A stretch of 64,000 bases of DNA from an uncultured Candidatus Saccharibacteria bacterium (GTDB lineage: Bacteria; Patescibacteriota; Minisyncoccia; Phycocordibacterales; UBA9973): NCBI GenBank assembly GCA_964563715.1, contig CAZLXA010000002.1, positions 9,467-73,466 on the forward strand. Direction: 5' to 3'. Both the position numbers and the translations under genes were made by a program. Numbering within the stretch: position 1 is the first letter of the stretch; every line of letters begins with the position of its first letter. The notes under the pieces were generated by a model. The model saw nothing but the letters and a program-made list of their open reading frames with translations, did not search any database and had not been told where the DNA came from. Shown one piece after another: positions 4,077 through 55,958 of the stretch.

Positions 4077-4103
4077 CCAGATAGCGGCAAGGCCGCTATC
4101 TGG
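4077..4103. repeat. REP-like hairpin copy 1 (CCAGATAGCGGC-AAG-GCCGCTATCTGG)
   Basis: Perfect 12-bp stem, 29 nt upstream of the ATG at 4133. Confidence 0.9.
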
Positions 4104-4132
4104 TATTTTTTGTTTGTAGTATAATAAATATT

Positions 4133-4861: not shown

Positions 4862-4945
4862 GGATTTGGGCAATTTAGGATGTATATATTTGGTTTTTGA
4901 ACTAGTATTCTTTCTTTTTTAAGTATTATTTGGTATAATATATTT

Positions 4946-5572
4946 ATGATTATCACATATTTTGGAAAGCAATTCTTTAAAATCGGTCAAGGTAGTTTAA
5001 CAGTGGCTTTTAATCCTATCAGTAAAGATTCAAAATTTGCTTCACTCGCTAGTCGTTTTGGTTCGGATATTGCTCTTTCGACAATTAATCATCCAGATTA
5101 TAATGGTTTTGAAATGGTTACTCACGGAGAAACGGTACCTTTTGAAATAAAAGGCCCAGGTGATTATGAAATTAAAGATATTTTTATTAAAGGAGTAATG
5201 ACTAACACCGAAATAGATGGAAAGAAATATATTAATACAATATATTCATTGTCTATTGAAAATATTTCCCTTTGTTTTTTGGGTGCAGTATCAGATGAAA
5301 AATTTAATGCTATAGTTCGCGAACAAATAGAATCACCAGATATACTATTTGTGCCAATTGGTAACAATGATTTACTAAGCCCAATCGAAGCTTATAAATT
5401 AGCTGTGACCCTAGAACCCAAAATAATTATCCCAATGGATTATGATGAAAAAACGTTGAAAATATTTTTGAAAGAAGCTGGTCAAGAAAAAGTAGCATCG
5501 ATTGAGAAACTTACAATAAAAGCTAAAGAGTTAATTGGTCGTGAAGGGGAGATTGTCGTATTATCATCATAA
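4946..5572 (+). CDS. MBL-fold (UPF0173/YtkL-like) hydrolase, putative
   Basis: MIITYFGxxxFKI N-terminus and overall pattern resemble Lactamase_B_3-type proteins. No clear HxHxDH motif. Confidence 0.5.
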   Translation: MIITYFGKQFFKIGQGSLTVAFNPISKDSKFASLASRFGSDIALSTINHPDYNGFEMVTHGETVPFEIKGPGDYEIKDIFIKGVMTNTEIDGKKYINTIYSLSIENISLCFLGAVSDEKFNAIVREQIESPDILFVPIGNNDLLSPIEAYKLAVTLEPKIIIPMDYDEKTLKIFLKEAGQEKVASIEKLTIKAKELIGREGEIVVLSS

Positions 5573-17257: not shown

Positions 17258-17367
17258 TTACAGTTTACCATTTTTGCTTCAATTTTCCTTAGTTTTTTGT
17301 TATACTAAAATCACAACTAAATAAGTTTTCCTAACCCCTATGAGATTTATTATAGGATATGGAATTT

Positions 17368-17507
17368 AATCGCGACGAACTTAAAGAACCTATCATTAGG
17401 GCGTTCGTCGCGTTATATTGGGAAACCGATATATAGATCTTCGGATCTTCCTAGTGGTAGGCTTTTTGCGTCTTACGCTAGGAATTTATCATTAAATCGC
17501 GACGAAC
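17368..17507. promoter_or_regulatory. iteron/operator-like repeats in the divergent intergenic region
   Basis: AATCGCGACGAAC at 17368-17380 and 17495-17507, with an inverted copy GTTCGTCGCG at 17403-17412. Also an AGATC-TTCG-GATCT hairpin. Confidence 0.45.
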
Positions 17508-17512
17508 AATTT

Positions 17513-21152: not shown

Positions 21153-21337
21153 CAAGTTAATGATAGACAGTTCTACTCCTATAACGGTATAAATATTTTA
21201 GTAATTTTTTAATTTTAAGTATATTTTACAACCTCAGTTTTATTTATAAGTAAATACCCATAGGTAGATAAAACACTTTTCCATTTTAAAATCTCTATTT
21301 CAAAGGTGTTCCACTCTATGGACTGTAAGCTCACAAA

Positions 21338-21372
21338 TGAAAAAACCTGTCGCAAGATAGGTCTTTTCATTT
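21338..21372. repeat. hairpin repeat copy 1 (ATGAAAAAACCTGTCGCAAGATAGGTCTTTTCATTT)
   Basis: Near-identical to 22272-22307. Sits within a longer perfect stem at 21332-21375. Confidence 0.8.
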
Positions 21373-22170: not shown

Positions 22171-22271
22171 GTTAATTTACTGTATCCTTTTATATTCTCT
22201 ACAATCTGATTCCCCGCCTACTCACGAGTACACGAGGGCGGGCGGGCAATTTGAACTACAAAGAGTCATAG

Positions 22272-22307
22272 ATGAAAAAACCTGTCGTAAGATAGGTTTT
22301 TTCATTT
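22272..22307. repeat. hairpin repeat copy 2
   Basis: ATGAAAAAACCTGTCGTAAGATAGGTTTTTTCATTT. Confidence 0.8.
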
Positions 22308-22682: not shown

Positions 22683-23082
22683 GTTGCCTCCTTTTTTGGT
22701 TAAATTAATTATTGAATTATAAAGAACAAAAAACAGCTTTTTTGAAAGCTGATTTTTAAAAATAAATTAGTTTGGGTTTTATTATCAAAAATCAACTTTC
22801 AAATTGAAAGTATAAATAAAAATTGTCCAAGTATTTTTATTTTGATTTCTGCTAATATTTAACATATATTTATAATTACATTTTTGAAAAAAGAAGTCAA
22901 TAAAATTAATCTAATGCAATAATGCAAAAACCATTTAACAGAGCGAGGTCTTGCCTCGCTCTGTTTAGATGTATATTATTTTGATATACTGTATTTATGG
23001 AACCCCGAATAAATTTTCAAGATTAATTACGGGGGATATGAAATTTTATAGATTTGTATTATTAATTAATTTATTATAATTT

Positions 23083-24089: not shown

Positions 24090-24162
24090 GCGCGGTTAGC
24101 TCAGTTGGTAGAGCGCGTCATTGACGTTGACGATGTCGGGGGTTCAAATCCCTCACCGCGCA
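24090..24162 (+). tRNA. tRNA-Val (anticodon GAC)
   Basis: Hand fold: acceptor GCGCGGT/ACCGCGC, D-arm GCTC-AGTTGGTA-GAGC, anticodon stem CGTCA/TGACG, loop TTGACGT. Followed by a hairpin terminator. Confidence 0.9.
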
Positions 24163-24339
24163 CAAAAATTACAGTAGTAATTTTTGTGCGGTAACGAGCC
24201 AACTGCTTGGCTCGTGAGTGGGATTTGAAGACCTTGAGCTTGGATTTTGAAATTTTAATTTCAAAATACGCGAAAGGTGTACAGAATCTGTAAGATTCGA
24301 AAAGCGTACTCGCGGTCCTGTATCGCGTATATTAACATC

Positions 24340-25101: not shown

Positions 25102-25125
25102 ACAATATAATTTAAAATAAAAACT

Positions 25126-25222
25126 AAAATAGCTCTTCTCAAAGGGCATACCAATTTCTTGCTAGAAATTGGCTCAGCGTTCGCGCCGTCGCGCTTACGA
25201 GCCCCTTTGATAAGACTATTTT
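25126..25222 (+). repeat. structured ~100-nt repeat, copy A
   Basis: Terminal inverted arms AAAATAGCTCTTCTCAAAGGG / CCCCTTTGATAAGACTATTTT, inner hairpin CCAATTTC-TTGCTA-GAAATTGG, and a GC-rich third segment. Confidence 0.75.
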
Positions 25223-25245
25223 GTTTTTATTATTGTAAAAAATAT

Positions 25246-26172
25246 TTATTTATTTTTGTGAATCCAAATATAGGCGTCCTCGAGAGCTTTAACAGCATCG
25301 CCAGTGGCGATGTTGTTTTGATGATAACGGCCATTTGTACAGTCACCAGCGGCCCATATACCCGGAACGGATGACATTTGAGTCATTGGATCAACAACAA
25401 TTTTACCAATTGTATCAATTTCGACGACATCTTTCATAAAACTAGTATTTGGTGTTTGACCGATTTCAACAAAAATACCAGTAGTTGGAATTGTAATTTC
25501 TTCATTTGAAATTTTATCTTTATAAGTTAAAGATTTAACAAATTGTTCGCCATCAACTCTTAAAATATCGGCGTTGGTAATAGCTTTAAACTTAGGATTT
25601 TCTTGTGTTTTCTTAACCGTAATTTCATCAGCTTTAAATTCAGCACTTCGGTGAATTAAAGTCACACTTTTACAATAAGCTAGTAACTGAATAGAGGTTT
25701 CAAAAGCGGCATTACCTCCACCAATAACTAAAACATCTTGATCGGCAAATAATGGTCCGTCACATGAAGCACAATAAGTAATTCCTTTGTGCTCAAAAAT
25801 ATCGGCATTGATAGCTTCTAATTTTCGGCGACCACTACCAGTAGCAACGAGTATAGCTTTCGTCTCATAACTTTTATCACTTTCTGTTTTAATTAAAAAG
25901 ACATCAAGAACCTTATTAACCTCAGTAATTTTTTCTCCATCAATAATATCTAAAAACGGACCTTTGTAATATTCGACGTGTTTTTTCAAACTCTCACCTA
26001 GTTGGGCTCCAGAAATTTCTGGCGTACCAATCCAATTGTAGATAGTAGTCGAAACAGTTGACTGACCTCCAAATTCGGCAGTTATAATAGCTGTTTTTAA
26101 TTGTTTGCGGGCGGCGTAGACGGCGGCGGCTGTGCCAGCTGGTCCTCCTCCTAATATTATTAAATCGTACAT
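25246..26172 (-). CDS. trxB: thioredoxin-disulfide reductase
   Basis: GGGPAGTAAAVYAAR FAD motif, CASCDG redox-active site, GGGNAAFE NADPH motif. Confidence 0.9.
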   Translation of the reverse strand: MYDLIILGGGPAGTAAAVYAARKQLKTAIITAEFGGQSTVSTTIYNWIGTPEISGAQLGESLKKHVEYYKGPFLDIIDGEKITEVNKVLDVFLIKTESDKSYETKAILVATGSGRRKLEAINADIFEHKGITYCASCDGPLFADQDVLVIGGGNAAFETSIQLLAYCKSVTLIHRSAEFKADEITVKKTQENPKFKAITNADILRVDGEQFVKSLTYKDKISNEEITIPTTGIFVEIGQTPNTSFMKDVVEIDTIGKIVVDPMTQMSSVPGIWAAGDCTNGRYHQNNIATGDAVKALEDAYIWIHKNK

Positions 26173-26198
26173 AGTTTTATCTTAACACATAAAATAAA

Positions 26199-26310
26199 AA
26201 TCTTAAATAAGTTCTTCTTAAAAGGTTCGGATAATTTCTTGTTAGAAATTTCCTCATTGCTCGCGCCGTCATGCTTGCGCACTCTCTCCTAATAAGACTT
26301 ATTTAAGATT
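26199..26310 (+). repeat. structured ~100-nt repeat, copy B
   Basis: Arms AATCTTAAATAAGTTCTTCTTAAAAGG / CTCCTAATAAGACTTATTTAAGATT, inner hairpin AATTTC-TTGTTA-GAAATT, and shared core TCGCGCCGTC. Confidence 0.75.
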
Positions 26311-26318
26311 TTTAAACT

Positions 26319-27500
26319 TTATTTTTTATTTCTTCGTAAAAATGCAGGGACGGTGTTCCAATCATCTGTGTCGTCGATGAATAAATCATCTTCAATTTTT
26401 TCAGTTTTCTTTATGTAATCAGTATTACCATTTTTTGATTGGTCTTTTGTCACAGCTTGAATTATTTCTTCTTTTGATGAATTTGAAACTGTTGGTTCAA
26501 TTGGTTTATTTTGGCCGATTTGGAAAAGTGAGCGTTTAGGCATATCGGTTGGGAAACCAGTCGCGATGACGGTAACTTTCATTTCACCTTTTTTTAATTT
26601 ATCATCTTGAATTGTTCCAAATATAACTTTGGCATCCTTATCGATTGATTCGGTGATTATCTTGGCAGCATCTTGAATTTCGTGGATAGTTAAATCATCG
26701 CCACCGGAGATTGCAAACAAAACTCCACGGGCCCCAGAAATAGATAAATCAAGAAGGGGGGAGTTAATAGCAGAAAGAGCTGCTTTTTCTGCTCGGCCTT
26801 CACCTGCGGCAATACCAACACCCATTAAAGCCGATCCAGCATCTGACATGACGGCTTTAATATCAGCAAAGTCAACATTGATCATACCGGGAGTTGTAAT
26901 TAATTCTGAGATTCCTTCTACCGCTTGTTTTAGAACTTCATCACACATAGCGAATGCTTGACGGAAGCCTAGGTCTTTTCCTGAAATAACGATTAAGCGA
27001 TCATTTGGAATAACTAAAATAGCATCAACTTCTTTTTCAAGTTCAGCTAATCCCATTTCAGCTATTTTCATTCTCTGATTTCCTTCGAATGAAAATGGTT
27101 TAGTTACAACAGCAACTGTCAGTATTCCTTGTTCTTTAGCAGCTTGAGCCACAATTGGAGCAGCACCTGTTCCAGTACCTCCACCCATTCCACAAGCAAT
27201 AAAAACCATATCAGCCCCCTTAATGACATCTTGGATTTCTGCTTTAGTTTCTTCGGCGGCTCGGCGTCCAACTTCTGGATTCATTCCTGAACCTAATCCT
27301 TTGGTTAGGTTTTTCCCCAAGTGAACCTTTTTTTCAGCAAGTGAATTATGAAGATCCTGAGTATCAGTATTCATAACAATGAATTCGACTCCTCGAACCT
27401 TTGATGTAATCATATGATTAAGCGCGTTTTTACCTGAACCACCGACGCCGATAACTTTAATTCGGGCAAATGATTCAATGTCTGGATTTAATTTAGGCAT
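26319..27500 (-). CDS. ftsZ: cell division protein FtsZ
   Basis: IKVIGVGGSGKNA and GMGGGTGTGAAP tubulin signature. The ATG at 27500 is preferred over the TTG at 27587. Confidence 0.92.
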   Translation of the reverse strand: MPKLNPDIESFARIKVIGVGGSGKNALNHMITSKVRGVEFIVMNTDTQDLHNSLAEKKVHLGKNLTKGLGSGMNPEVGRRAAEETKAEIQDVIKGADMVFIACGMGGGTGTGAAPIVAQAAKEQGILTVAVVTKPFSFEGNQRMKIAEMGLAELEKEVDAILVIPNDRLIVISGKDLGFRQAFAMCDEVLKQAVEGISELITTPGMINVDFADIKAVMSDAGSALMGVGIAAGEGRAEKAALSAINSPLLDLSISGARGVLFAISGGDDLTIHEIQDAAKIITESIDKDAKVIFGTIQDDKLKKGEMKVTVIATGFPTDMPKRSLFQIGQNKPIEPTVSNSSKEEIIQAVTKDQSKNGNTDYIKKTEKIEDDLFIDDTDDWNTVPAFLRRNKK

Positions 27501-27669
27501 ATATTTGTGAGACTTTAGTCTTTCGTTAATAATAAGTTTATGTAAGTACATAATACCAGATATTAGGAAAAAGGAAACATTTGACAATATTTATATATGT
27601 TTTCTTATTATGTCTAAAACAATTTGTATAACAAATTATGCGCCCGAACATTTTATAAAACAAAATGTT

Positions 27670-28842
27670 TTAGGGTAGGAGTTGAGAAAAAATTGATTTA
27701 AAAAAACTTTTTACTTCTTTAATATTATTACCCAGAGAACTATTTAGATCATTTGAAAATTCGTCACTTTCAGTTAGAGCCAAACCAAGAGCGGTATACC
27801 AAGAAGCATCTCGAATCTTAAATTTATTATTTAATGTTCCATCAGCCGGTCCAACTTTTACTGGAAGTTTTAATTGATTGCGAGCAATATTCTCAATATT
27901 TTTAATCAGTGAACCATTACCAGTTAAAATTATTCCAGCCGGTAGAAGTTCATTTCTTTTTAGTCGTTTAAGTTGATTGCTGATAAGTTCAAAAATATCA
28001 TCAAGACGAGCTTCAATTATTTCATCGATTTTTTTCTTTGAATAATCAGCCCCGATGACACTACCTAGTTTAATACTCTCCGCTTCATCAAGTGAAATTT
28101 TTAAACCGAGAGCAATATCTTTAGTGATGTCCATACTCCCAATTGGAAATACCGAAACTGAAATTGGTAAATTATTTTCAAAAACGGCTGTTGAAACAGT
28201 CTCTGAACCAATATCGACTAAAATACAACCAGCAATTTTTTGCTTATTATTAAGGAGTAGATTGCCCGAAATAATAGGCGAGGCCGATATTTCCTCAATA
28301 TCTATTTTAGCCAAGGTCAAACAAGTTATTAGGTCTTCAATATTTTGTTTTAAACAAGTAATAAATAGAGTTTTAACTTCAAGTTTAATTCCACGCAATC
28401 CTTCAGGCCTGGCATAAATATCTTTACCATCTAATTTATAACCGATAGGAATGGTGTGAATAATTTTTTTATTTATAATATCAAGATTCTCTTCACTATT
28501 GGCAATAACTTTTTGTACATCTAAATTTGTTATTTCTTGGTCAGCCTTAGAAATAATTACTGAGCCAGTTGAAAATGTCGAACCGAGACTTATCCCACCA
28601 ATAGAAACATAAGCCCGGCGGATTTTAATTCCTAAAATATTTTCAGCTTGCTTAACAGCTTTTTTAATACTATCGGTGACACTTTCAATATTTGTAATAT
28701 AACCAAAACGCATACCAACGGTTGGGGACATGCCGGTTGCTAAAACAGTCGGCTCGGTTTTGCCTTTGTCGAAACCAACGACAATAACTTTAGTCGAATG
28801 TGTTCCTATGTCTATTCCGCAAGTATAATTATTTTTTATCAT
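27670..28842 (-). CDS. ftsA: cell division protein FtsA
   Basis: Actin-fold phosphate motifs GIDIGTHSTKV and LVDIGSETVS, immediately upstream of ftsZ. Confidence 0.85.
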   Translation of the reverse strand: MIKNNYTCGIDIGTHSTKVIVVGFDKGKTEPTVLATGMSPTVGMRFGYITNIESVTDSIKKAVKQAENILGIKIRRAYVSIGGISLGSTFSTGSVIISKADQEITNLDVQKVIANSEENLDIINKKIIHTIPIGYKLDGKDIYARPEGLRGIKLEVKTLFITCLKQNIEDLITCLTLAKIDIEEISASPIISGNLLLNNKQKIAGCILVDIGSETVSTAVFENNLPISVSVFPIGSMDITKDIALGLKISLDEAESIKLGSVIGADYSKKKIDEIIEARLDDIFELISNQLKRLKRNELLPAGIILTGNGSLIKNIENIARNQLKLPVKVGPADGTLNNKFKIRDASWYTALGLALTESDEFSNDLNSSLGNNIKEVKSFFKSIFSQLLP

Positions 28843-29885: not shown

Positions 29886-30405
29886 TGATAGTATTATACA
29901 GTACTAAACATTAATAAACAATATTATGGTTAATAAACTGTAGTAATGTTTATATATCTTTTACGAATTAGTTATATTTGTTTAAAAATATTTAATTTGA
30001 TGATTTGAATTAGTTTAAAATAATTATATATTTTAATTCAAATAATACATTTGAAAATAATGTACCATTAAAAAATAAACTTATGAGATTAAATTCTAAA
30101 TTATTTTATATAAAATTATTTATAAACCATAGTATTATTTTTTACATATTATTAATAGAAATATATTGTTAAATATTATTAATTAAGATATAATTTAAAA
30201 TATAATATCATTTATGAATATTTACTCCAATCAAAAACAAATTTAAAAAAATAATTAATATCAAATAATTTTGCTTAACGAAAAAAGTAACTTAATAAAA
30301 CTACCAGATAAAATTCCACCTGAAGATGGAAGCTGGTTCTCAATGTTTCATACGATAGTAAAAGAATACAAATTAAAATTATCAATATTAAAAAAAGAAT
30401 ACAAA

Positions 30406-33400
30406 ATGAAAAATATATTTTTAAAACTAAATAACAAAACTATAAATATTAAAAGTAAGATATTTATAAAAACATTTGCACCAATTTTTGTCGCCTTTTT
30501 AATTTTTACATCTTTTTCTTTCCTCTCCCAAAAAGCATTCGCAGACGATGTTTCACTTAACTGGGGAAAAGGAATAAATGGATATTTATCTTTCGCAAAA
30601 GAATACATAGTAGCTGATTCTACTGGGAATATTTATATTGTGGGAAATTTTACTGGTACAGTTGATTTTGACCCAGGCGGAGGTGTATATAATTTAACCG
30701 CTGTAGGAAGTTATGATGCATATATTTTGAAATTAGATTCATTGGGAAATTTTTTATGGGCGAAAGCAATTGGTGGAGTAGATTATGATGTAGCAAATAT
30801 TATAGCTATTGACTCTACTGGGAATATCGCTGTTGCTGGAAATTTTGCTGGTACAGTTGATTTTGACCCAGATGCTAGTGTGTATAATTTAACCGCTGTA
30901 GGAAGTTATGATGCATATATTTTGAAATTAGATTCATTGGGAAATTTTTTATGGGCGAAAGCAATTGGTGGAGTAGATTATGATGTAGCAAATATTATAG
31001 CTATTGATTCTACTGGGAATATCGCTGTTGCTGGAAAATTTCAAAGTACAGTTGATTTTGACCCAGGTATTGGTGTATATAATTTAACTTCTTCGGGGAG
31101 CAATGATGCCTTTATTTCAAAGTTTGATTCATCGGGAAATTTTATATGGGCAAAAACAATTGGTGGAACAGGTGATGATGTAGCTAACTCTATTGTTGTC
31201 GAAGTAACAACTGGAAATATTTATATAGCTGGAAAATTTCAAAGTACAGTTGATTTTGACCCAGGTATTGGTGTATATAATTTAACTTCTACTTCAAGTG
31301 AGGATGCTTTTTTTGCAAAATTAGATTCTTCTGGAAATTTTGTATGGGCAAGAAGAATAGGTGGGGTAAATAATGATGTTGCTAGTAATATAGCTATTGA
31401 TTCTGCTGGTAATCTGGGTGTATCAGGTAATTTCGCTGGGACAGTTGATTTTGACCCAGGTGTTGGTGTTTATAACTTGAGTGGTTTTAATTCATACAAC
31501 AATCCATTTCTTTCAAAATTTGATTCATCGGGAAATTTTATATGGGCGAAAGTCTTTTACACAACAAATCATGCTTCTGTTGATTCTCTAGTATCAGATG
31601 CAAATAATAACTTTTATTTGGCGGGTTCATTTCAAGGGACCATGGATGCGAATCCTAATTCTGGTACAAAAAATCTTTCTGGTACAAGTCCTTCAAAAAA
31701 TTTTATTATTAAATTAGACACTTTAGGAAATCATATTTGGTCAAATACCTATAATGTAAGTAGAAGTTATATAACCATAGATTTAAGTGGGGATATTTTA
31801 GTTACGGGTCCTTTTTATGGTACAACTGATTTTGATCCAAGCGCTGGTGTCTTTAATTTAACCTCTGTAGGTGTTATAACCAATACTTATATAGTTAAAC
31901 TTTCACCAATTCCTTCAGATTTTATTCCAAATGCATTTACTTTCAACGACCAAATACTAAAAGCTGTAAATACTTCTTATGAATCGAATACTATTACATT
32001 GTCAGGATTAAATGAAGTTGTAGCTATTTCTATATCATCCTGTAGTAGTTCTATTTGTGAATATTCAATAAATAACGGAACATATACTTCAGTTCCTGGT
32101 ATTATAATAAGCGGGGATACTGTAAAGGTCCGACAAAAATCTTCTATCAATGATTCGACCACTACTGATTTAATTTTAAATATAGGTGGAGTTAGTGATA
32201 CATTTTCTGTAACTACAGACGACTGGACTAAACCTTTAATTTCTTCTTTTTCTGTCCCAGCAAAATCAACTTCATATATTATTCCTATAACCAATTTTGT
32301 TGCAACCGATGATCAGTTTGTTGCTGGGTACTTAATCACAGAATCATCAACTACTCCATCTATAAATTCTCCTGATTGGACAGTTACTCCTCCATCAACC
32401 TATCTTGTATTCACAAATGGACTAAAGACACTATATTCTTGGGCAAAGGATAATACAGATAGAATTTCAAACCCAATAAGTGCTCAAATTCTAGTTGATA
32501 CTTCACCTGTGGTTTCTACTTTTACTATTCCGTTAAATTATAATTCTGCAACAGTTCCTATTAATACTTTTAATGTTACTGATAATGTTGGTGTTGCAGG
32601 TTATATGGTTACAGAAAATCTGACTCCACCAAATATAAATGATTCAAGATGGACTGAGACTGCTCCCTCTTCGTATACGTTTGAAAATATAAATGACTCA
32701 GTACCGAGTACCTGGAATCAAAGGACAGCAGCTACTTTTTCAACATCATGGCGTACCATCGCTTCTTCGGCCGATGGGAATAAATTGGCTGCTGCTATTG
32801 GACAAATCGGTGGAGCTAGTAATTGTAGTTCACCAAGTTGTTATATATATACATCAACTGATGCTGGAAATACTTGGACCGCACGAACTAGTGCTGGCTC
32901 CCGTAATTGGTCAGGTATCGCTTCATCATCAGATGGAACAAAATTAGTAGCAGTAATTGGTGGGGATTATATTACCGGATACGTATATACTTCAATAGAT
33001 AGTGGAGCGACTTGGGTAGCCAGGACTGGAAATGGTTCTCTAAGATGGCACGATGTTACTTCGTCTTCGGATGGAACTAAATTGGCTGCCATAACAGGAG
33101 GGCGATATTATAATGGATCAATATATACTTCAATAAATAGTGGGGAAACATGGACAGCACAAGCTGGAGCAGGTTCACGTTATTGGATGTCAATAGCTTC
33201 ATCATCTGATGGTACAAAATTAGTAGCAAATCCCGGATATGGTTATATTTACACTTCAAATAATAGTGGGGTGACTTGGATAGAGAGAACAAGTTCTGGT
33301 ATACGTTCTTGGGTAGACGTGGCGTCTTCTGCTGATGGATTAAAATTAGTAGCGACTTCAGGAAATGGTTATATTTATACTTCAAATGATGGTGGGGCTA

Positions 33401-36400
33401 CATGGATAGAGAAAACAAGTTCTGGTATACGTAGCTGGGGCCAGGTTGCATCTTCGTCGGACGGAGTAAGGCTAATTGCGGCAACGAGTAATTCGGGATA
33501 TATATATTACTCAAGTGACTCGGGGACAACGTGGCTTGAGCAAGCATCAATGGGATTAAAGGAACGTGCTGGTGTTGCTTCCTCTTCTGATGGAACTAAA
33601 ATAGCTATCGGAGATAGATATGGAGATATATATACTTCCAAATTTGGGAATGAACTTCATGGTTGGGCTAAAGATTCAGAAGGGTTGGTGTCAAGTTCTA
33701 CAATATATTCAAATGATACAGTGATAATTGATTTTAATACTCCAGTAGTTACAGCATTTTCAATACCCACTAATTCATCTTCATTAACTGTTCCGATTAC
33801 AACTTTTACAGCGACCGATAATGTTGGAGTGACTGGATACATACTAACCGAAAGTCCTACAGTTCCACCGTCTAATGATATTGGTTGGACGACTGATGCT
33901 CCGGCGACATATACATTTTCTTCGTACGGGAATAAGACTTTATATGCCTGGGTAAAAGATGGGAATAATAGTATTTCAAATCCACTTTCAGCTTCAATAT
34001 TTCTTAATTCCGCTCCGTCTGTAACCTCTTTTGTAATTAATTCTGATTATAATTCTTTTACTATTCCAATCTCGACTTTCACTGCAACTGATGATACTCA
34101 AGTTACTGGATATAAAATAACGGAGAATAACGATGTACCGTCCCCATTTGATAATGGTTGGAGTGACACAGCTCCCACAAATTATACTTTTAGTATACAA
34201 ACAGATATTTCTCCTAAAAATTGGGTGCAAAAAACGAGTGATGCCAATAGGAGTTGGCAGGCAATAGCTTCCTCTTCTGATGGAACAAAAATTGTTGCAG
34301 TAGTAGGTGCAGATTTTAATTCTGGTTACATTTATACTTCAGATAATAGTGGAACTACATGGATAGAAAGAACAAATGCGGGACTACGTAAGTGGAAAAC
34401 TGTTGCTTCTTCTTCAGACGGAACAAAATTAGTAGCTGGTGCATATGACGGTTATGTGTATACTTCTGATGACTCGGGTGCTACCTGGATAGAAAGACAA
34501 CCTGAAGTTGGGAGAAAATTTAATTTTTACCGTCCAATCGTTTCTTCAGCCAATGGAACAAAATTGGCATTTGTTGAAAACATGTGTGTAAACCAAGGTA
34601 GATTATATACATCGACAGATGGTGGAGATACATGGACAAATAAAATTATTTCAGGTTCGCAAATTATTTCCTATTCGTCTGATGGTAATATATTGATTGC
34701 AGGTGATAATTATGGTGGTACAGGATGTACCAGTGGAACTAATGGGGGTTATATTTCTACTTCAACTGATAATGGTAATACTTGGACACAAAGAACCAGT
34801 GCTGGTTTACGAAAATGGAGTGCGGTGGCTTCTTCTTCAGACGGAACAAAACTATTTGCTACAGCTGATAAAGAAATTAATAGTCCTGGATATATATACA
34901 CATCTATCGACGGAGGGGTAACTTGGTTAGAAAGAGTATCGGCAGGCTCACATGAATGGAAATCAATTATTTCCTCATCGGATGGAACAAAATTAGTAGC
35001 TCAAGTTAGAGGGCAGAATGGTGCAGGAGATATTTATTCTTCGACAGACGGTGGAATTAATTGGAGTCTAAGAAATAGTAATAATTCATGGTATGGAGTG
35101 TCATTATCCGCTGATGGAAATAAATTAGCTACTATTGTTAACGGTGGATATATTTATACTTCAACTGCCATTTATACCGCCGAGGGTGCAAAAACTTTAT
35201 ATGCTTGGGCTAAAGATGAAAATGGTGGTGTTTCGAATCCATCTACCGGGCAAATAGTTGTCCATGTAAATCCTCCCACGTCCACAATTAATCCCCTTTG
35301 TGACATTTCAGAAAATAGATGTACTGCTTCAGGAATAGTTTCTAGTCCACAGCAAGTTTATGCTGTTCAATTAATTTCTGGTATTTCTTCAGAAGCTATT
35401 TCCGATATTGAAATTTCGATAAAAGATGATACTTTGGATAAATGGTTTTCGAACGGAGTATTTTCTTCAGATGTTGAAATATATTCTACAATAACTAATA
35501 CGACGGAGTGGTCATATGGTACAAAAACTTGGGCATATGATTTATCTACACTTCCTCTAACTATTGGTAATGTTTATAAACTTAATGTAAAGGCTACAGA
35601 TACATTTGGTAGTGTTGAAAACCCTGTTTCGACAACATCTTTCGTTTTTTCGAGTTTAACACTAGATAACGCCGCTCCTGTTATTACTCTGACCGGGTTA
35701 AATCCGATGAACGTAACACTAGGTCAATCATATTCTGAGCCGGGGGCAGATGCTGTGGATGCTATTAGTGGCCCACGTCCGGTAAGTATTTCTGGTACTG
35801 TTAACAATAATGCTCTTGGGTCCTATACTATTACGTATACCGCGACAGATATGACAGGGAATATTGGAACAGCTACGAGAACAGTAAATATAATTCCATC
35901 TCCAACAGTGTCTTTTGATACTGTTTCTAATAACGGAGATGAAAGTGCGAGTCCTTATGATGCTATGGTAAGTATTTCACGTGCTGATGCTCAAAATACA
36001 ACTGTTGAATATATTGTCTCAGGAACAACAACCAATGCCGATCATACACTTGTCAGTGGAACTGTTACTTTCTTGGCAGGAGAAGTATCGCAAGAGATAT
36101 CCATTCCAATAATTGACGACATTCTAAAAGAATTAAATGAGACAGTAATCTTGACCCTTTCGAATCCTATTAATGGGATATTAGGAACTAATGTGTCATT
36201 TACTTACACAATTAATGATAATGATATTGCGTCAGGAATAGAATTTTCAACTGGCGAATCCTCTAACCTAGAAAGTCTTAATATGGTAGATATTCCGATT
36301 TCATTAGCTAGTATCTCTGGTACAAACACGACAATTGATTATACTATTTCTGGAACAGCGACAAGTGGAGATGATTATTACTTAGATGAAGGGACAGCAA

Positions 36401-39195
36401 CTATTATTGCAGGAGAAACAACAACGAATATTAATATTGAGATTATAGATGATATTCTGAAGGAAGAAAATGAGACTGTTATTATTGCATTATCTAATCC
36501 TACAAATTCAACTCTCGGATCAAATAGCACTTATACTTATACCATTACAGATGATGATATCTTACCCTCAATTGGTTTTGATGTTGTCTCAAGTGAAGGA
36601 GATGAAAATGTTACAACCGTAAATATTCCAGTTTCAATATCCTCTCCTTATGCGGAAGATGTTACTTTCACTTATTCGGCGACAGACGGGACCGCCACGG
36701 GTGGAGATGTTGACTACTCACTTGTAAGTGGAACTGGTACAATAATAGCAGGGGAAACTTCAACTGAAATAACTATCGTTATATTTGACGATGATATTTC
36801 TGAAGAAACTGAAACATTATTAGTTACTATTTCAAACCCTGTTAATGCAACACTTGGAAAGAACATTAGTCATATTTATTCTATCTTAGATAATGAAATT
36901 TCAATTACAAGTGTGACTGGAAATAATATTAAAGCAACAAGTGCAAAAATAGTTTGGACTACAGCAGATTTTACTGATGGATTAATAGAATATGGAATTA
37001 TTGCTCCAGGGAATGAAGGAGCATATAATCTTCAAAAATCTAATGAAGATAAAATATTAGACCATAGTTTCTATTTAGGAAATTTAACTCCTGAAACAAC
37101 TTATTATTTTAGAACAACTTCTACTAATCTAAATAATGAGACGACAGTTTTTGAGTCAGAATTTGCAACAACACCTGGACCAGTAATTAGCGATGTATTA
37201 TCAAGTGAAATAACTGATACTACCGTACTAATTACTTGGACAACAGACATTCCTACGACTTCACAAGTAAATTATGGAATAGATATAAATCTCGCGGATT
37301 TTGATAGGTCGGGCTCTGATGAATTAGTTACAACCCACTCAGTTTTACTTACAAACCTTGCTTCGGCTAATACTTATTACTATTTAGTGGCTGGAATTGA
37401 TGCTGATACAAATGAAACGGAAGATGCAAATAATGGTGATTATTATATTTTTATTACAGGGGATGACCAAACTCCTCCAATACTATCTGAAATATCAGTT
37501 CCTATTATAACTTCAACTCAAGCAGCAATTGTTTGGTTGTCCAATGAGCCGGTTGATGGTAAGGTAATGTATGGAACAAATGTAGGAGTTTATGAAAATG
37601 AGACTGATTTAATATTAACACCACTCACAAATCATTTAGCAATAACGGGAGAATTGTCGGAGACAACAACTTATTTCTATGTAGTGGAATCTTCAGATGC
37701 AAATGGAAATACAACTACTTCTGAAGAACACTCCTTTGTAACACAAGCGCCAGGGGAAGTCATTGTTTATAGAGGCGGAGGTAGTGGAATAATGGGTGTA
37801 GCTCAAGAAATGTATGACTTACTCCTTAATGAAAATAAAATTTACAAAGATAGAATTGGGTCTATTGAAAATGAGCCAGTAATTTCAAATATTCAAATTT
37901 CTAATGTAACGGCTTTTGGAGCCACAATTTCATTTGAAACAGATAAAGACACAATAGGATTTATAGATTATGATAGAAATACAAACTATAGTCTTTTGGC
38001 GGCGGATAAAAATTGGTCCAAAAGTCATTCGATTATTTTACATGGTCTAAATTTTGGAACAGATTATTTTTTCAAAATTTCAGCCATGAATAAATCTAAT
38101 CTAAGAAGTGTTTCCGAAGAGCAAAACTTTAAAACGAAATTTTTTAGTGAGAATATTGATCAGTTAACAAAAGTTGAAAACATTGAGCAATTTCAGAAAG
38201 AGTTAGAGTCAACTATTGAGTCAATATTACCTTCGATTGTACCCCCATTTATAGATAAACCAGTTGTTTCTGATATTACCGAGAATAGTGCAATTATTTC
38301 ATTTCGTACAAATGTTAGTGCTTATCCAATAGTTAGCTTCACTCCAGAAAGTTCTTATGACGCAAACAAAGAAAATTCTTACAATGGTGAAATATCAGAT
38401 ACAACAAAAAAAGGTATATCCCATAAACTTAATTTAGTTAATCTAAAACCTAATACAAAGTATCATTTCATTGTAAAAGCTTTCTCCTTACCACAAGTTA
38501 TAGGTAAATCAGATGATTTCACTTTTATGACCAAGGCTTCTAAAATTCAAGGATCAATTATTGACATTAAAAAAGATTCATTTATTGTTGTCTGGAACAC
38601 AGATGAACCAACATCATCAATTGTAGAGTATAAGAATATAAATTCTGGCAGAGTATCTCGTATTGCAGATAGTACAATAAATAGTTCCCACTCACTTAAG
38701 ATTGAAAACCTTACTCCTGGTACTCAATACCAAGTTACAATTTCTGGAATAAATAGTAAGGGTAATATTATAGAGGGAGGAAGTCCTCTTAATATTAAAA
38801 CTTCAACAGATAATATTCCTCCTACAATTTCAGGTATAAAAGTTGATAGTTCTTTAGTTGCAGGAAGAGAAGATAAAGTTCAAACAATAATTTCATGGCA
38901 GACTGATGAACCTTCTACCTCTGCTGTCTATTATGAAGAGGGTTCTGGTTCGATAGATTCACCTCTCTCAAGTAAACAAGAGGACTCTGAATTAACTAAA
39001 AATCATGTTGTTATATTAAATTCCCTAAAGCCTGGCACGGTTTATAGATTTTCTGTTGAATCTATGGATGGGGCAGATAATATAAACAAACAACCAGTTA
39101 GAACCATAATTACACCTAAAAAATCAGAATCAATTATTGATGTAATCTTTAAAAATTTTGATGACACATTTAATTTTATTAATAATGTTAGATAA
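30406..39195 (+). CDS. giant secreted multidomain surface protein (SBBP repeats, 2 Asp-box/BNR propellers, Ig-like repeats, DUF5011, 3 Calx-beta, 7 FN3-like)
   Basis: Signal peptide at the ATG at 30406 (…FSFLSQKAFA). GNxxVAGxFxGTVDFDPG repeats, 12 SxDxGxTW Asp-boxes in two blocks, DDIxKExNET Calx-beta motifs and repeated IxWxTDxP...YG FN3-like units. Confidence 0.85.
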   Translation: MKNIFLKLNNKTINIKSKIFIKTFAPIFVAFLIFTSFSFLSQKAFADDVSLNWGKGINGYLSFAKEYIVADSTGNIYIVGNFTGTVDFDPGGGVYNLTAVGSYDAYILKLDSLGNFLWAKAIGGVDYDVANIIAIDSTGNIAVAGNFAGTVDFDPDASVYNLTAVGSYDAYILKLDSLGNFLWAKAIGGVDYDVANIIAIDSTGNIAVAGKFQSTVDFDPGIGVYNLTSSGSNDAFISKFDSSGNFIWAKTIGGTGDDVANSIVVEVTTGNIYIAGKFQSTVDFDPGIGVYNLTSTSSEDAFFAKLDSSGNFVWARRIGGVNNDVASNIAIDSAGNLGVSGNFAGTVDFDPGVGVYNLSGFNSYNNPFLSKFDSSGNFIWAKVFYTTNHASVDSLVSDANNNFYLAGSFQGTMDANPNSGTKNLSGTSPSKNFIIKLDTLGNHIWSNTYNVSRSYITIDLSGDILVTGPFYGTTDFDPSAGVFNLTSVGVITNTYIVKLSPIPSDFIPNAFTFNDQILKAVNTSYESNTITLSGLNEVVAISISSCSSSICEYSINNGTYTSVPGIIISGDTVKVRQKSSINDSTTTDLILNIGGVSDTFSVTTDDWTKPLISSFSVPAKSTSYIIPITNFVATDDQFVAGYLITESSTTPSINSPDWTVTPPSTYLVFTNGLKTLYSWAKDNTDRISNPISAQILVDTSPVVSTFTIPLNYNSATVPINTFNVTDNVGVAGYMVTENLTPPNINDSRWTETAPSSYTFENINDSVPSTWNQRTAATFSTSWRTIASSADGNKLAAAIGQIGGASNCSSPSCYIYTSTDAGNTWTARTSAGSRNWSGIASSSDGTKLVAVIGGDYITGYVYTSIDSGATWVARTGNGSLRWHDVTSSSDGTKLAAITGGRYYNGSIYTSINSGETWTAQAGAGSRYWMSIASSSDGTKLVANPGYGYIYTSNNSGVTWIERTSSGIRSWVDVASSADGLKLVATSGNGYIYTSNDGGATWIEKTSSGIRSWGQVASSSDGVRLIAATSNSGYIYYSSDSGTTWLEQASMGLKERAGVASSSDGTKIAIGDRYGDIYTSKFGNELHGWAKDSEGLVSSSTIYSNDTVIIDFNTPVVTAFSIPTNSSSLTVPITTFTATDNVGVTGYILTESPTVPPSNDIGWTTDAPATYTFSSYGNKTLYAWVKDGNNSISNPLSASIFLNSAPSVTSFVINSDYNSFTIPISTFTATDDTQVTGYKITENNDVPSPFDNGWSDTAPTNYTFSIQTDISPKNWVQKTSDANRSWQAIASSSDGTKIVAVVGADFNSGYIYTSDNSGTTWIERTNAGLRKWKTVASSSDGTKLVAGAYDGYVYTSDDSGATWIERQPEVGRKFNFYRPIVSSANGTKLAFVENMCVNQGRLYTSTDGGDTWTNKIISGSQIISYSSDGNILIAGDNYGGTGCTSGTNGGYISTSTDNGNTWTQRTSAGLRKWSAVASSSDGTKLFATADKEINSPGYIYTSIDGGVTWLERVSAGSHEWKSIISSSDGTKLVAQVRGQNGAGDIYSSTDGGINWSLRNSNNSWYGVSLSADGNKLATIVNGGYIYTSTAIYTAEGAKTLYAWAKDENGGVSNPSTGQIVVHVNPPTSTINPLCDISENRCTASGIVSSPQQVYAVQLISGISSEAISDIEISIKDDTLDKWFSNGVFSSDVEIYSTITNTTEWSYGTKTWAYDLSTLPLTIGNVYKLNVKATDTFGSVENPVSTTSFVFSSLTLDNAAPVITLTGLNPMNVTLGQSYSEPGADAVDAISGPRPVSISGTVNNNALGSYTITYTATDMTGNIGTATRTVNIIPSPTVSFDTVSNNGDESASPYDAMVSISRADAQNTTVEYIVSGTTTNADHTLVSGTVTFLAGEVSQEISIPIIDDILKELNETVILTLSNPINGILGTNVSFTYTINDNDIASGIEFSTGESSNLESLNMVDIPISLASISGTNTTIDYTISGTATSGDDYYLDEGTATIIAGETTTNINIEIIDDILKEENETVIIALSNPTNSTLGSNSTYTYTITDDDILPSIGFDVVSSEGDENVTTVNIPVSISSPYAEDVTFTYSATDGTATGGDVDYSLVSGTGTIIAGETSTEITIVIFDDDISEETETLLVTISNPVNATLGKNISHIYSILDNEISITSVTGNNIKATSAKIVWTTADFTDGLIEYGIIAPGNEGAYNLQKSNEDKILDHSFYLGNLTPETTYYFRTTSTNLNNETTVFESEFATTPGPVISDVLSSEITDTTVLITWTTDIPTTSQVNYGIDINLADFDRSGSDELVTTHSVLLTNLASANTYYYLVAGIDADTNETEDANNGDYYIFITGDDQTPPILSEISVPIITSTQAAIVWLSNEPVDGKVMYGTNVGVYENETDLILTPLTNHLAITGELSETTTYFYVVESSDANGNTTTSEEHSFVTQAPGEVIVYRGGGSGIMGVAQEMYDLLLNENKIYKDRIGSIENEPVISNIQISNVTAFGATISFETDKDTIGFIDYDRNTNYSLLAADKNWSKSHSIILHGLNFGTDYFFKISAMNKSNLRSVSEEQNFKTKFFSENIDQLTKVENIEQFQKELESTIESILPSIVPPFIDKPVVSDITENSAIISFRTNVSAYPIVSFTPESSYDANKENSYNGEISDTTKKGISHKLNLVNLKPNTKYHFIVKAFSLPQVIGKSDDFTFMTKASKIQGSIIDIKKDSFIVVWNTDEPTSSIVEYKNINSGRVSRIADSTINSSHSLKIENLTPGTQYQVTISGINSKGNIIEGGSPLNIKTSTDNIPPTISGIKVDSSLVAGREDKVQTIISWQTDEPSTSAVYYEEGSGSIDSPLSSKQEDSELTKNHVVILNSLKPGTVYRFSVESMDGADNINKQPVRTIITPKKSESIIDVIFKNFDDTFNFINNVR
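30691..31080 (+). repeat. near-perfect 195-bp tandem duplication inside the giant gene (one SBBP unit)
   Basis: 30691-30838 matches 30886-31033 with a single mismatch seen (GACTCT vs GATTCT). Period is 195 nt, or 65 codons. Confidence 0.85.
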
Positions 39196-55795: not shown

Positions 55796-55836
55796 GTTCT
55801 AGTAATTAGTTTCTAGTAATTAGTGTAAATTGTGAA

Positions 55837-55940
55837 ATAAAATAAGTCTTTGAAAAATGCCTTGCGCAGAGCGACTGGCTCGAGCAGAGCAAAAACCTAG
55901 CAAGGTTTTATGTGTGCATTTTGAGAAGAGCTTATTTTAT
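55837..55940 (-). repeat. structured ~100-nt repeat, copy C (inverted relative to A and B)
   Basis: The reverse complement aligns with copies A and B. Arms ATAAAATAAGCTCTTCTCAAAATGC / GCATTTTTCAAAGACTTATTTTAT, inner hairpin AAAACC-TTGCTA-GGTTTT. Confidence 0.7.
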
Positions 55941-55958
55941 GAAGCACTTTTTAAATAA

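Follow-up and report, generated by a model that had tools for sequence, protein, structure and literature searches.

In a 64,000-nucleotide stretch of DNA from an uncultured Candidatus Saccharibacteria bacterium (contig CAZLXA010000002.1; this stretch is called the window here), the gene trxB is bracketed by two same-orientation copies of a structured repeat. Do these repeats serve the gene that they flank, or do they belong to something wider? The product of trxB is a thioredoxin-reductase-type Pyr_redox_2 protein, and the gene upstream of it is ftsZ. A sequence-only reading of the window had reported the two copies around trxB, and both are present there, with the full extents listed in Table 1. 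Copy A sits between the stop codon of trxB (25246) and that of a convergent NTP-transferase gene (25101), and copy B lies 5 nt from the ftsZ stop codon and 23 nt from the trxB start codon. The same reading had alluded to three copies, and a third was found about 30 kb from the trxB pair. This copy C is sense-oriented between two + strand genes, at 54884-55795 (SAM methyltransferase-like) and 55959-57122. Against the covariance model R1, copies A, B and C score 67.8, 56.9 and 34.8 bits (E about 1e-6 for copy C).

Copies A and B were also recovered as direct-repeat family D18. Their similarity had been put by eye at roughly 70%; the similarity is real and the figure was somewhat low, since aligned columns give 80% identity. 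The longest exact run common to both is 9-10 nt. The motifs AATTTCTTGYTAGAAATT and TCGCGCCGTC are common to the two copies and occur nowhere else in the window, where 0.18 matches to TCGCGCCGTC are expected by chance. The strand had been assigned differently. The RNA-like strand is the minus strand of the window, that is, the reverse complement of the sequences as they were then written.

Table 1. Positions of the repeat copies and their hairpins in the window.
Feature	Position	Strand	Description
Copy A, whole element	25119..25228	minus	P1 with paired A-tract and U-tract, plus three-way-junction cap
Copy A, hairpin P3	25151..25172	minus	9-bp stem; loop AGCA (TGCT on the plus strand)
Copy A, hairpin P2	25178..25199	minus	GCGC-GACG-GCGC upper stem, purine-rich internal loop, 2-3-bp lower stem
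Copy B, whole element	26196..26313	minus	fills the ftsZ-trxB spacer
Copy B, hairpin P3	26229..26253	minus	family-typical bulged A; loop AACA on the minus strand
Copy B, hairpin P2	26258..26282	minus	partly degenerate; GCGC...GCGC able to close a 10-nt loop
Copy C, diverged third copy	55835..55941	+	model R1 match at 55846-55932

In each window copy an A-tract and a U-tract border a long stem, P1, which is capped by a three-way junction with two hairpins, P2 (short and G+C) and P3 (longer). This architecture, read earlier as a closing stem with two internal hairpins, is not due to chance. Folding z-scores were -6.1 and -6.3 for copy A and -5.2 and -5.9 for copy B, and none of 200 shuffles folded as well as either copy. 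In the subfamily to which the window copies belong, P1 contains a bulged G as well as an A.G mismatch, with the A-tract and the U-tract at either side. Across the family, P2 has a G+C stem of 4 bp and a GNCG/GACU loop, with tandem G.A bracketing it, and P3 is a stem of 10-12 bp, mostly with a bulged A, that ends in an AGCA loop and has a G.U beside an A.G at its base. Copy A has A.A and A.G in the P2 internal loop where most family members have the tandem G.A, and copy B retains three of the four upper P2 pairs when read in the family register.

The fold of the element is clearly conserved. An alignment of 11 sequences of the window's subfamily, with copy C as one of its rows, shows compensatory changes on both sides of 29 of 39 pairs. 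Paired cells make up 94.8% of this alignment compared with 77.7% in shuffles, and its covariation score of 0.511 stands against at most 0.136 in slid controls. Thus, the covariation looked for in a larger alignment is strongly supported. Pairs in P3 and in both the upper and lower stems of P2 covary family-wide, and P1 varies in sequence while its pairing is maintained. The copies found at one and the same ftsZ-trxB locus (copy B and its counterparts in the relatives L123, L140 and L142) have compensatory changes in outer P1, which shows that pairing was maintained while TrxB fell to 74-82% identity. Pairing in a long palindrome can also be maintained by templated (quasi-palindrome) DNA repair, without selection on an RNA.

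Which of the two strands is the folded one? Of 115 copies, 107 fold more stably on the window minus-sense strand, and the mean advantage is 7.7 kcal/mol. In P1, G.U wobbles outnumber A.C in each gene-associated subtype (20:5, 13:1, 26:9 and 39:12), the G.U at the base of P3 is kept in 86 of the 115 copies, and the tandem G.A motifs are present on the folded strand only. Based on the excess of G.U over A.C and on the G.A motifs, the folded strand is predicted to be the one co-transcribed with ftsZ and trxB; in all three window copies it is co-oriented with the upstream gene. One subtype appears to carry a CTCG...CTCG "direct repeat", which on the sense strand reads as a CGAG/CGAG tandem G.A motif.

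The window copies are members of a large family of branched hairpins of about 110-150 nt that is found essentially only in Patescibacteria. A scan for further copies with the covariance model, as had been suggested, gave 124 matches in 713 kb. Copies occur about once per 20-30 kb, from which tens of copies per genome can be extrapolated on the basis of the sampled loci. An exact core pattern matched at least 119 stretches in species-representative genomes, nearly all of them Patescibacteria MAGs, although retrieval by exact pattern overstates the conservation of the core. Viral contigs held no match to this pattern, and a phage origin was rejected on that ground. The family is apparently undescribed so far. 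At gathering threshold, neither the three window copies nor 17 loci that contain canonical copies matched any Rfam 15 family. When the locus and a canonical copy were scanned permissively, the matches were at chance level only (TwoAYGGAY at 19.9 bits; Virus-PTE, RF02521, at 28 bits on the complementary strand, compared with a gathering threshold of 80). ARAGORN reported no tRNA or tmRNA at the copies. A LOOT RNA gene, distinct from the element and without sequence similarity evident by eye, lies at 17328-17449. Full-text searches of a limited literature, in which an earlier publication could still have been missed, found no description of the element, and a paper on tRNA introns in Patescibacteria does not mention it.

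The sequence-only reading had named a small structured RNA or attenuator family as one fit, had proposed that two direct copies could co-regulate trxB or mediate its deletion or duplication, and had suggested that the synteny of trxB be checked. The ftsZ-trxB spacer and the spacer downstream of trxB were compared in relatives with TrxB 74-91% identical, and the flanking elements vary: present, inverted, replaced or missing. The equivalent slots hold the element, an inverted element, a plain terminator (A-tract, hairpin, U-tract), a different capped hairpin or nothing. The orthologous copy B is present in L123, L140 and L142, an inverted element occupies the spacer in L130 and L161, and the spacer lacks the element in L122, L124 and others; L124 has only about 7 nt between ftsZ and trxB. 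A clean empty site for copy B was sought in L122, the closest relative by TrxB (91%). Its spacer holds a plain hairpin and is unalignable, and the insertion boundaries of copy B are therefore not definable. Slots this varied indicate that the element is not a trxB regulator, and an attenuator specific to trxB is not supported. Deletion or duplication of trxB between the copies is unlikely given how short their longest exact run is. What speaks for a trxB-specific device is local geometry, two same-orientation copies around one gene, whereas trxB persists in relatives whether its flanking elements are absent, single, inverted or of another kind, and the family adjoins tRNAs and many unrelated genes, housekeeping genes among them. 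This explanation is largely refuted, and its probability is close to negligible.

The three window copies occupy the slot of the relatives' ordinary terminators, at the 3' ends of ftsZ, trxB and the methyltransferase gene. In the wider family, 25 copies lie between convergent genes compared with 10 between divergent genes, an enrichment at gene 3' ends. The neighbours, checked for a functional theme, show none and range over cell division, redox, replication, translation, secretion and pili. The orientation relative to genes differs among subtypes. In the commonest subtype, the adjoining gene is on the opposite strand in 15 cases and on the element strand in 3, and the confirmed opposite-strand genes include those for PolA, S7, NDK, UvrD, a DEAD helicase, SerRS and SecY. 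Pooling all non-tRNA subtypes within 60 nt gives 36 opposite-strand genes compared with 14. In the opposite-strand cases of the commonest subtype, plain terminators are frequent beyond the element, so that those mRNAs would carry the complementary strand. This subtype has no U-tract, and its P1 runs about 17 bp from the CGAG/CGAG motif to the junction, as read from the sequences. Replication was rejected as the determinant of orientation, as copies occur on both strands of the window and the cumulative GC skew rises throughout it.

In the commonest and the tRNA-linked subtypes, a plain terminator hairpin precedes the element on the element's own sense strand, regardless of gene orientation, at a distance of a few to about 45 nt. 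By a crude measure this is a tendency and not a rule: perfect stems of at least 8 bp were found upstream in 11 cases and downstream in 2 (n=77). The spacing from a preceding terminator or stop codon is often just 5-25 nt. In the tRNA-linked subtype, the canonical terminator lies mostly between the tRNA and the element. In this size class, 13 of 35 copies end in an 11-21-nt direct copy of the 3' end of the upstream tRNA, and 12 of these 13 are beside an identified tRNA. At least nine different tRNA identities are involved. The longest of these repeats begin at T-loop position C56, and some extend into the trailer. The arm opposite the repeat is its complement, and the repeat thus belongs to the closing stem of the element itself. 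Outside this size class, none of 76 copies has a tRNA-type flanking repeat of 11 nt or longer.

How does the element compare with known intergenic repeats? The REP/BIME and REPIN sequences of proteobacteria are short multi-copy intergenic palindromes at gene 3' ends; they are co-transcribed, act as terminators or mRNA stabilisers and are thought to be mobilised in trans. The element is likewise short, multi-copy, palindromic, intergenic and clustered at gene 3' ends. It belongs to another phylum, however, and has a conserved apical three-way junction on a variable stem, whereas REP sequences have conserved 20-35-mer arms around a variable loop and an associated RAYT gene; no RAYT-like gene was noticed here. 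The Correia/NEMIS elements of Neisseria and the RUP, BOX and ERIC MITEs are intergenic hairpin repeats of 100-150 nt that are co-transcribed and are processed or cause termination; they occur in either orientation and show presence/absence polymorphism. The element resembles Correia/NEMIS in size, intergenic placement, variable orientation and presence/absence variation, but it has no counterpart to the conserved 26-bp terminal inverted repeats and TA target duplication of Correia. The earlier suggestion of a MITE is not supported in its classical form: terminal arms differ between copies, and no target-site duplication was seen. Even within a single genome (ELA554, at L005, L020, twice at L037, and L054) the outer arms are wholly different while the centre is constant. 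No direct repeat of at least 11 nt flanks any of the 76 non-tRNA-class copies, and the longest matches equal those of shuffled controls. The CTCG flanks were considered as a target-site duplication and are better read as the tandem G.A motif.

Class C group II introns insert just 3' of intrinsic terminators, a position shared by the commonest and tRNA-linked elements. The element is far too small for such an intron, no reverse transcriptase was seen, and the permissive Rfam scans, which reported matches at E up to 10, did not list Intron_gpII or group-II-D1D4. The tRNA 3'-end repeats, which bracket a terminator-plus-element unit at many tRNAs, resemble those of integrative elements aimed at tRNA genes. 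This far-border repeat is a feature of the tRNA-linked subtype and not of the window copies, the "island" is only about 110-150 nt with no ORF or integrase, and the repeat lies within the element's own closing stem. The attC sites of integrons have conserved R''/L'' and L'/R' boxes at the stem base and a variable centre, whereas here the base is variable and the centre conserved. Virus-PTE, the best sub-threshold Rfam match, likewise joins two hairpins at a three-way junction above a long basal stem. It is a plant-virus translation enhancer; the likeness is architectural only, and the element is not a member.

The best reading, a tentative one, is of a hairpin that is transcribed, forms a 3' end or a terminator and carries a conserved cap. 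The element would be transcribed as the 3' end of the ftsZ, trxB and methyltransferase mRNAs and act as a leaky, bidirectional terminator. The hairpin may block 3' exonucleases or serve as a processing site, and the cap may offer a docking surface for a putative conserved factor. The family probably spread as a non-autonomous element, at least historically. That the element, plain terminators and other capped hairpins interchange in the same slots of relatives argues for such a 3'-end module. Bidirectional intrinsic terminators share the slot and the paired A- and U-tracts at the stem base, and a run of at least four U ends P1 in 8 of the 11 subfamily members. However, the stem is long (25-33 bp), A+T-rich and branched, and its cap is atypical, at about 65 nt compared with the 3-8-nt loop of an intrinsic terminator. 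A simple consensus terminator scan did not call the element. Copy B leaves no space for a trxB promoter and thus cannot terminate efficiently. The opposite-strand genes of the commonest subtype and the terminator that precedes tRNA-linked elements also count against this reading. Alternatively, the element may be selfish non-autonomous DNA, a small module mobilised in trans that lands next to or within terminator-like hairpins and in the T-loop region at the 3' ends of tRNA genes. The mobilising enzyme would recognise the conserved fold on one DNA or RNA strand, and any terminator effect would be incidental. The copy density, the orthologous spacers with the element present, missing or inverted, and the lack of a function common to the neighbours all fit such a module. 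So do the tandem units in L071, L113 and L072, the paralogues of the "P0" subtype that are conserved over their full length of about 150 nt (two of them in L118, for instance), the tRNA repeats confined to one size class, and the tendency to follow a plain terminator whatever the gene orientation. Yet the terminal arms are unconserved, target-site duplications are lacking outside the tRNA class, no transposase, integrase or reverse transcriptase adjoins any copy examined, and viral contigs have no matches. Furthermore, the three window copies are old and diverged and still fold with compensatory changes, and same-locus copies persist across relatives in very compact genomes. This selfish explanation is less likely than the 3'-end reading.

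Could the element instead be an independent small-RNA gene family that acts in trans, for instance as a component of a ribonucleoprotein, with the outer stem or tRNA copy as the identity of each paralogue? The fold is strand-specific and is kept also at copies whose flanking gene lies opposite, helices keep their lengths although their sequences vary, the loops and G.A motifs are highly conserved, and copies are about as numerous as tRNA genes. However, copy B is wedged between ftsZ and trxB, the gap after a preceding terminator or stop codon is short in many copies, no conserved promoter was recognised upstream, and the variable region is base-paired and so unavailable as a guide; this makes an independent RNA gene improbable. 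A signal at the DNA level, a cruciform or single-stranded hairpin read by a DNA-binding or recombination protein (att/attC-like, dif-like, a replication signal or a roadblock), would explain copies in both orientations relative to genes and tRNA repeats that resemble att-site duplications, and tandem sheared G.A pairs are stable in DNA too. The orientation in the window follows transcription and not the replication inferred from GC skew (copies A and B on one strand, C on the other), the stem base has no conserved motifs like R and L boxes, and the apical loops are conserved while the stems vary, the reverse of attC; the probability of a DNA signal is low. A broader and rather unlikely proposal is a new phylum-wide functional structured RNA, or a mobile module that targets structure, associated in Patescibacteria with tRNA genes and the 3' ends of transcripts. 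The G.A-rich three-way junction would then recruit a putative conserved factor, and the closing stem would be made from local sequence. At tRNAs, an antisense arm and a duplicate of the adjacent tRNA from the T-loop to the 3' end would together form this stem. The arrangement may act as "punctuation", as a signal for processing, or as a switch in competition with the folding of the tRNA. It may instead mark a novel insertion mechanism aimed at hairpin loops or at the T-loop.

Patescibacteria (CPR) are a huge and largely uncultured lineage with genomes of about 1 Mb and very little spare DNA. A conserved structure of 110-150 nt in every 20-30 kb or so is a sizeable investment for such small genomes. 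If the element is functional, it would be a lineage-specific means by which transcripts and tRNA precursors are ended, insulated or processed, and would point to a putative partner that reads the G.A-rich three-way junction. If it is selfish, it would be a mobile module of unusual build, with a constant centre, locus-specific arms and a tRNA 3'-end duplication, moved by a mechanism that known MITE, REP or integrase models do not explain. Either way, the covariance model is ready for the annotation of CPR genomes, where the element can serve as a marker of terminator slots.

Copies A, B and C are the window's members of a family of branched-hairpin repeats (3 copies per 64 kb). On the minus strand of the window the gene order is ybeY, ftsA, ftsZ and trxB, and an NTP-transferase gene that ends at 25101 converges on trxB. 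The sequence-only reading, in which two same-orientation copies of a structured repeat bracket trxB, agrees with the sequence. Copies A and B show 80% column identity when aligned, were picked up as repeat pair D18 by repeat detection in the window, and hold its only occurrences of the motifs AATTTCTTGYTAGAAATT and TCGCGCCGTC. The proposed closing stem with two hairpins has been borne out as well: both strands of A and B fold in this way (z -5.2 to -6.3 against shuffles). The suggested covariance model check recovered the third copy, C.

Positions of the repeat copies, their neighbours and other features in the window and in loci of relatives (L-numbers)
Feature	Location	Strand	Remarks
ftsA	27670-28842	minus	
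ftsZ	26319-27587	minus	
trxB	25246-26172	minus	thioredoxin-reductase-type gene
Copy A with paired A and T tracts	25119-25228	minus (sense)	fills spacer between convergent trxB and NTP-transferase stop codons
Copy B with paired A and T tracts	26196-26313	minus (sense)	fills ftsZ-trxB spacer
Copy C	55846-55932	plus (sense)	model match, 34.8 bits; between two plus-strand genes; diverged more than A and B
CTAGT-rich short repeats	55795-55830		precede copy C
tRNA-Val	24090-24163		
Structured tRNA-Val trailer, ~175 nt	24164-24339	plus	MFE -53 kcal/mol, z -3.9
LOOT RNA (Rfam RF03000)	17328-17449	plus	70.9 bits; gathering score 46.4
Partial repeat of LOOT RNA segment AATCGCGACGAAC	17496-17510		~50 nt downstream
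Plain hairpin repeats CCAGATAGCGGCCTTGCCGCTATCTGG and AAAAAACCTGTCGCAAGATAGGTCTTTT	4077-4106, 4318-4347, 4835-4864, 22938-22967; also 21331-21372, 22266-22307		look like ordinary terminator hairpins, themselves repeated
2974-aa ORF	30271-39195	plus	many internal tandem repeats, periods ~195 nt and ~126-138 nt
ftsZ-trxB spacer: element, same orientation	L140, L142, L146; L123		P2 lost in L123
ftsZ-trxB spacer: element inverted	L130, L161		
ftsZ-trxB spacer: core 2 capped hairpin	L125, L128; possibly L163		cap looks different in L163
ftsZ-trxB spacer: plain A-tract/hairpin/U-tract terminator	e.g. L133-L139, L122 and its group		
ftsZ-trxB spacer: essentially empty	L124:3990-4000		ftsZ stop to trxB start ~7 nt; TrxB 87% identical
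Core 2 sites	L125:3890-3975 and 4925-5000; L128:3880-3975; L124, L131, L163		last three just 3' of trxB

On the sense strand the element has four parts: a long closing stem (P1), a short linker, a short G+C hairpin (P2) and a longer hairpin (P3). In the window's subfamily P1 spans ~25-33 bp, and its variable outer pairs are followed by a G bulge, 4 bp, an A.G mismatch and 7-8 bp. The lower stem of P2 (2-4 bp) covaries; above it come a GA/GA internal loop, a G+C stem of 4 bp and a loop of the GACG type. P3 (~10-12 bp) has an AGCA loop, usually one bulged A and, in most of the family, G.U and A.G at its base. Covariation across 115 copies is strong in P3 and in the lower stem of P2, with 232 cells changed on both sides versus 88 expected and no shuffle equal. 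When a structure was drawn by hand on 11 sequences of the window subfamily (A, B, C and same-locus copies of relatives), 94.8% of cells were paired versus 77.7% in shuffles, both sides had changed in 29 of 39 pairs, and the covariation score was 0.511 versus at most 0.136 with slid partners. The upper P2 stem changes in relatives from GCGC/GCGC to GGCU/AGCC, GCUC/GAGC and GGCC-type stems.

The sense strand is the more stable one in 107 of the 115 copies (mean 7.7 kcal/mol) and carries 317 G.U pairs versus 136. In ungapped, symmetric counts of P1 wobbles, G.U is commoner than A.C in each gene-associated subtype (20:5, 13:1, 26:9 and 39:12); the count is noisy in the tRNA subtype (77:64). The conserved internal loops can be read as tandem G.A on the sense strand only (GA/GA in P2, CGAG/CGAG at the P1 base of the commonest subtype, UUUUGAAGAG/CUCUGAGAAA in the P0 subtype). 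By stability, wobble bias and strand-limited tandem G.A, what is conserved is therefore one particular strand in single-stranded form, whether RNA or DNA. All the covariation evidence carries one caution: templated repair within a strand can also maintain complementary arms in long palindromes. Selection on the folded single strand is argued by the asymmetric features that are conserved, namely the G.A motifs, the bulged G and A, and the bias in wobbles.

An exact core pattern, TTCTTGYTAGAA-N(8-24)-TCGCGCCGTC, was scanned over one genome per species and matched in at least 119 stretches. Among the matches listed, all are Patescibacteria MAGs except three obvious chance ones (Latescibacterota, Pseudochryseolinea); their labels include Paceibacterota, Nomura-, Zambryski-, Kaiser-, Adler- and Taylorbacteria, Minisyncoccia and 'Saccharibacteria', and several genomes hold 2-5 matches each. 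The same pattern had no match in viral contigs. The covariance model R1, built from 115 copies, gave 124 matches on 713 kb of pattern-matched loci, or, with the seeds not counted, ~1 additional copy per 30 kb. Core conservation is overstated by exact-pattern retrieval, and the P2 stem and loops are variable in R1-found copies. Rfam 15, checked as had been advised, has no family for the element, and a full-text literature search found no description of it. Another palindromic repeat, GTCATTCCCGTGAAGACGGGAATCC and variants, occurs in the flanks of Patescibacteria loci L012, L048, L085 and L095, and directly adjoins a family member in L085.

Gene calls for the family loci were crude (longest ORFs and ARAGORN), and those checked were confirmed by Pfam. 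The tRNA-linked subtype, assigned by core length, comprises 37 copies. An upstream neighbour could be scored for 34 of these, and 25 of the 34 sit 34-117 nt 3' of a tRNA in the same orientation, usually with a plain terminator hairpin in between. The subtype involves at least nine tRNA identities. Of 35 copies in the tRNA size class, 13 have a P1 3' arm that, with the next bases, forms an 11-21-nt direct copy of upstream sequence, which is the tRNA 3' end in 12 cases; the longest repeats begin at T-loop position C56, and some extend 2-10 nt into the trailer. No such repeat was found in the 76 copies outside this size class. L071, L113 and L072 carry tandem units on the sense strand, 3' of tRNA-Met, tRNA-Ser and tRNA-Lys. 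The unit consists of trailer and element and closes with a tRNA 3'-end copy; in L071 the whole unit is immediately repeated. The window's tRNA-Val trailer runs from a plain A/U-flanked hairpin through an arm antisense to the tRNA-Val 3' end (with a small hairpin inside) and a different core to GGTCCTGTATCGCG, a tRNA-Val-like 3'-end fragment. In the orthologous trailers of L125 and L163 the arms are arranged in the same way around a non-family core; in L128 this position holds a family member. The longest NTP-transferase ORF (GTG at 24277) overlaps this trailer; an ATG at 24340 fits the 253-aa public gene call.

Genes abutting the commonest gene-associated subtype are antisense to it in 15 cases versus 3 sense (Pfam-confirmed PolA, S7, NDK, UvrD, DEAD helicase, SerRS and SecY genes adjoin the antisense side), often with a plain terminator on the far side of the element. 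With all non-tRNA subtypes pooled, 36 antisense versus 14 sense genes lie within 60 nt. The P0 subtype, with one more outer helix, is conserved over ~150 nt. The window's subtype lies mostly between convergent genes or directly 3' of a co-oriented gene, and over all copies convergent-gene spacers number 25 versus 10 divergent. No shared function was found among the neighbouring genes checked by Pfam.

Co-regulation of trxB by the flanking repeats, which the sequence-only reading had put forward, is contradicted by synteny in 42 metagenomic loci (TrxB identity 54-91%): relatives' trxB occurs without the element, with an inverted copy or with a plain terminator. The spacer 3' of trxB is equally varied in content. 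The element is thus not required for trxB and is interchangeable with ordinary terminators; the gap in L124 shows that a spacer element between ftsZ and trxB is dispensable. Window copy B, L123, L140 and L142 share slot and orientation, and their outer P1 differs by compensatory changes (AUCUU/AAGAU, GCCU/AGGU, AUCCC/GGGAU, ACCUG/CAGGU), so that pairing has been maintained across considerable divergence. By this comparison the element is both long-lived and replaceable. In relatives, the terminator slots next to trxB are also filled by core 2, a second family of capped long hairpins (consensus ~ ..ATGAGTCGCGTAGGGCyC...GGGGTAAAGCGCGAAT..), with no Rfam match at gathering threshold on L125, L128 and L163. 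Upstream of trxB in L122, L127, L129, L131 and L132, CTAGT-rich short repeats, TTCTAGTRAYTAG, in the ftsZ-trxB spacer bracket a small hairpin, AAGAAAATCATAAAC...GTTTATGATTTTCTT, and a promoter-like TATACT box. The repeats preceding copy C are similar.

For the window copies, a cis-acting 3'-end module is the best-supported reading, if a tentative one. The element would be transcribed as a 3'-end hairpin that acts as a leaky, bidirectional terminator; it may serve as an exonuclease block or processing site, and its cap, the three-way junction with P2 and P3, may be read by some conserved factor. A transcribed 3' end is suggested by all three copies, in which the folded strand is co-oriented with the upstream gene, terminator slots are occupied and U-runs stand at the ends. 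The main difficulty is that, elsewhere in the family, many members run antisense to the gene they abut or come after a canonical terminator. These copies fit better with a selfish, structure-dependent mobile module or with independent transcription. The same direction is indicated by spacers in which the element is polymorphic for presence or orientation, by the tandem units and by the repeats of the tRNA 3' end. We regard a purely selfish element as rather unlikely, yet as a serious competitor. The 3'-end and mobile readings are compatible with each other. REP and Correia elements are mobile and are also used as terminators, and the readings are ranked accordingly, with the 3'-end module first and the purely selfish element second.

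Independent transcription as a trans-acting small RNA is considered improbable. A DNA-level signal is slightly more doubtful still; a replication-oriented function is unlikely from copy orientation in the window relative to GC skew. Given the variety of spacers in relatives, a device specific to trxB is hardly credible.

In its way of working the element resembles the small palindromic intergenic repeats of other bacteria and an elaborated intrinsic terminator. The MITE assignment entertained earlier did not hold, as conserved terminal repeats and target-site duplication are lacking. The element likewise falls outside the definitions of REP/REPIN, attC and group II intron domains, and belongs to none of the Rfam families. 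Its tRNA-linked subtype shares the 3'-end direct repeat with tRNA-targeting integrative elements but differs from them in having no integrase and an insert of only 110-150 nt. What distinguishes the family is a reversed pattern of conservation, in which the branched cap is conserved and the stems are specific to each locus, along with tRNA 3'-end mimicry and phylum-wide spread.
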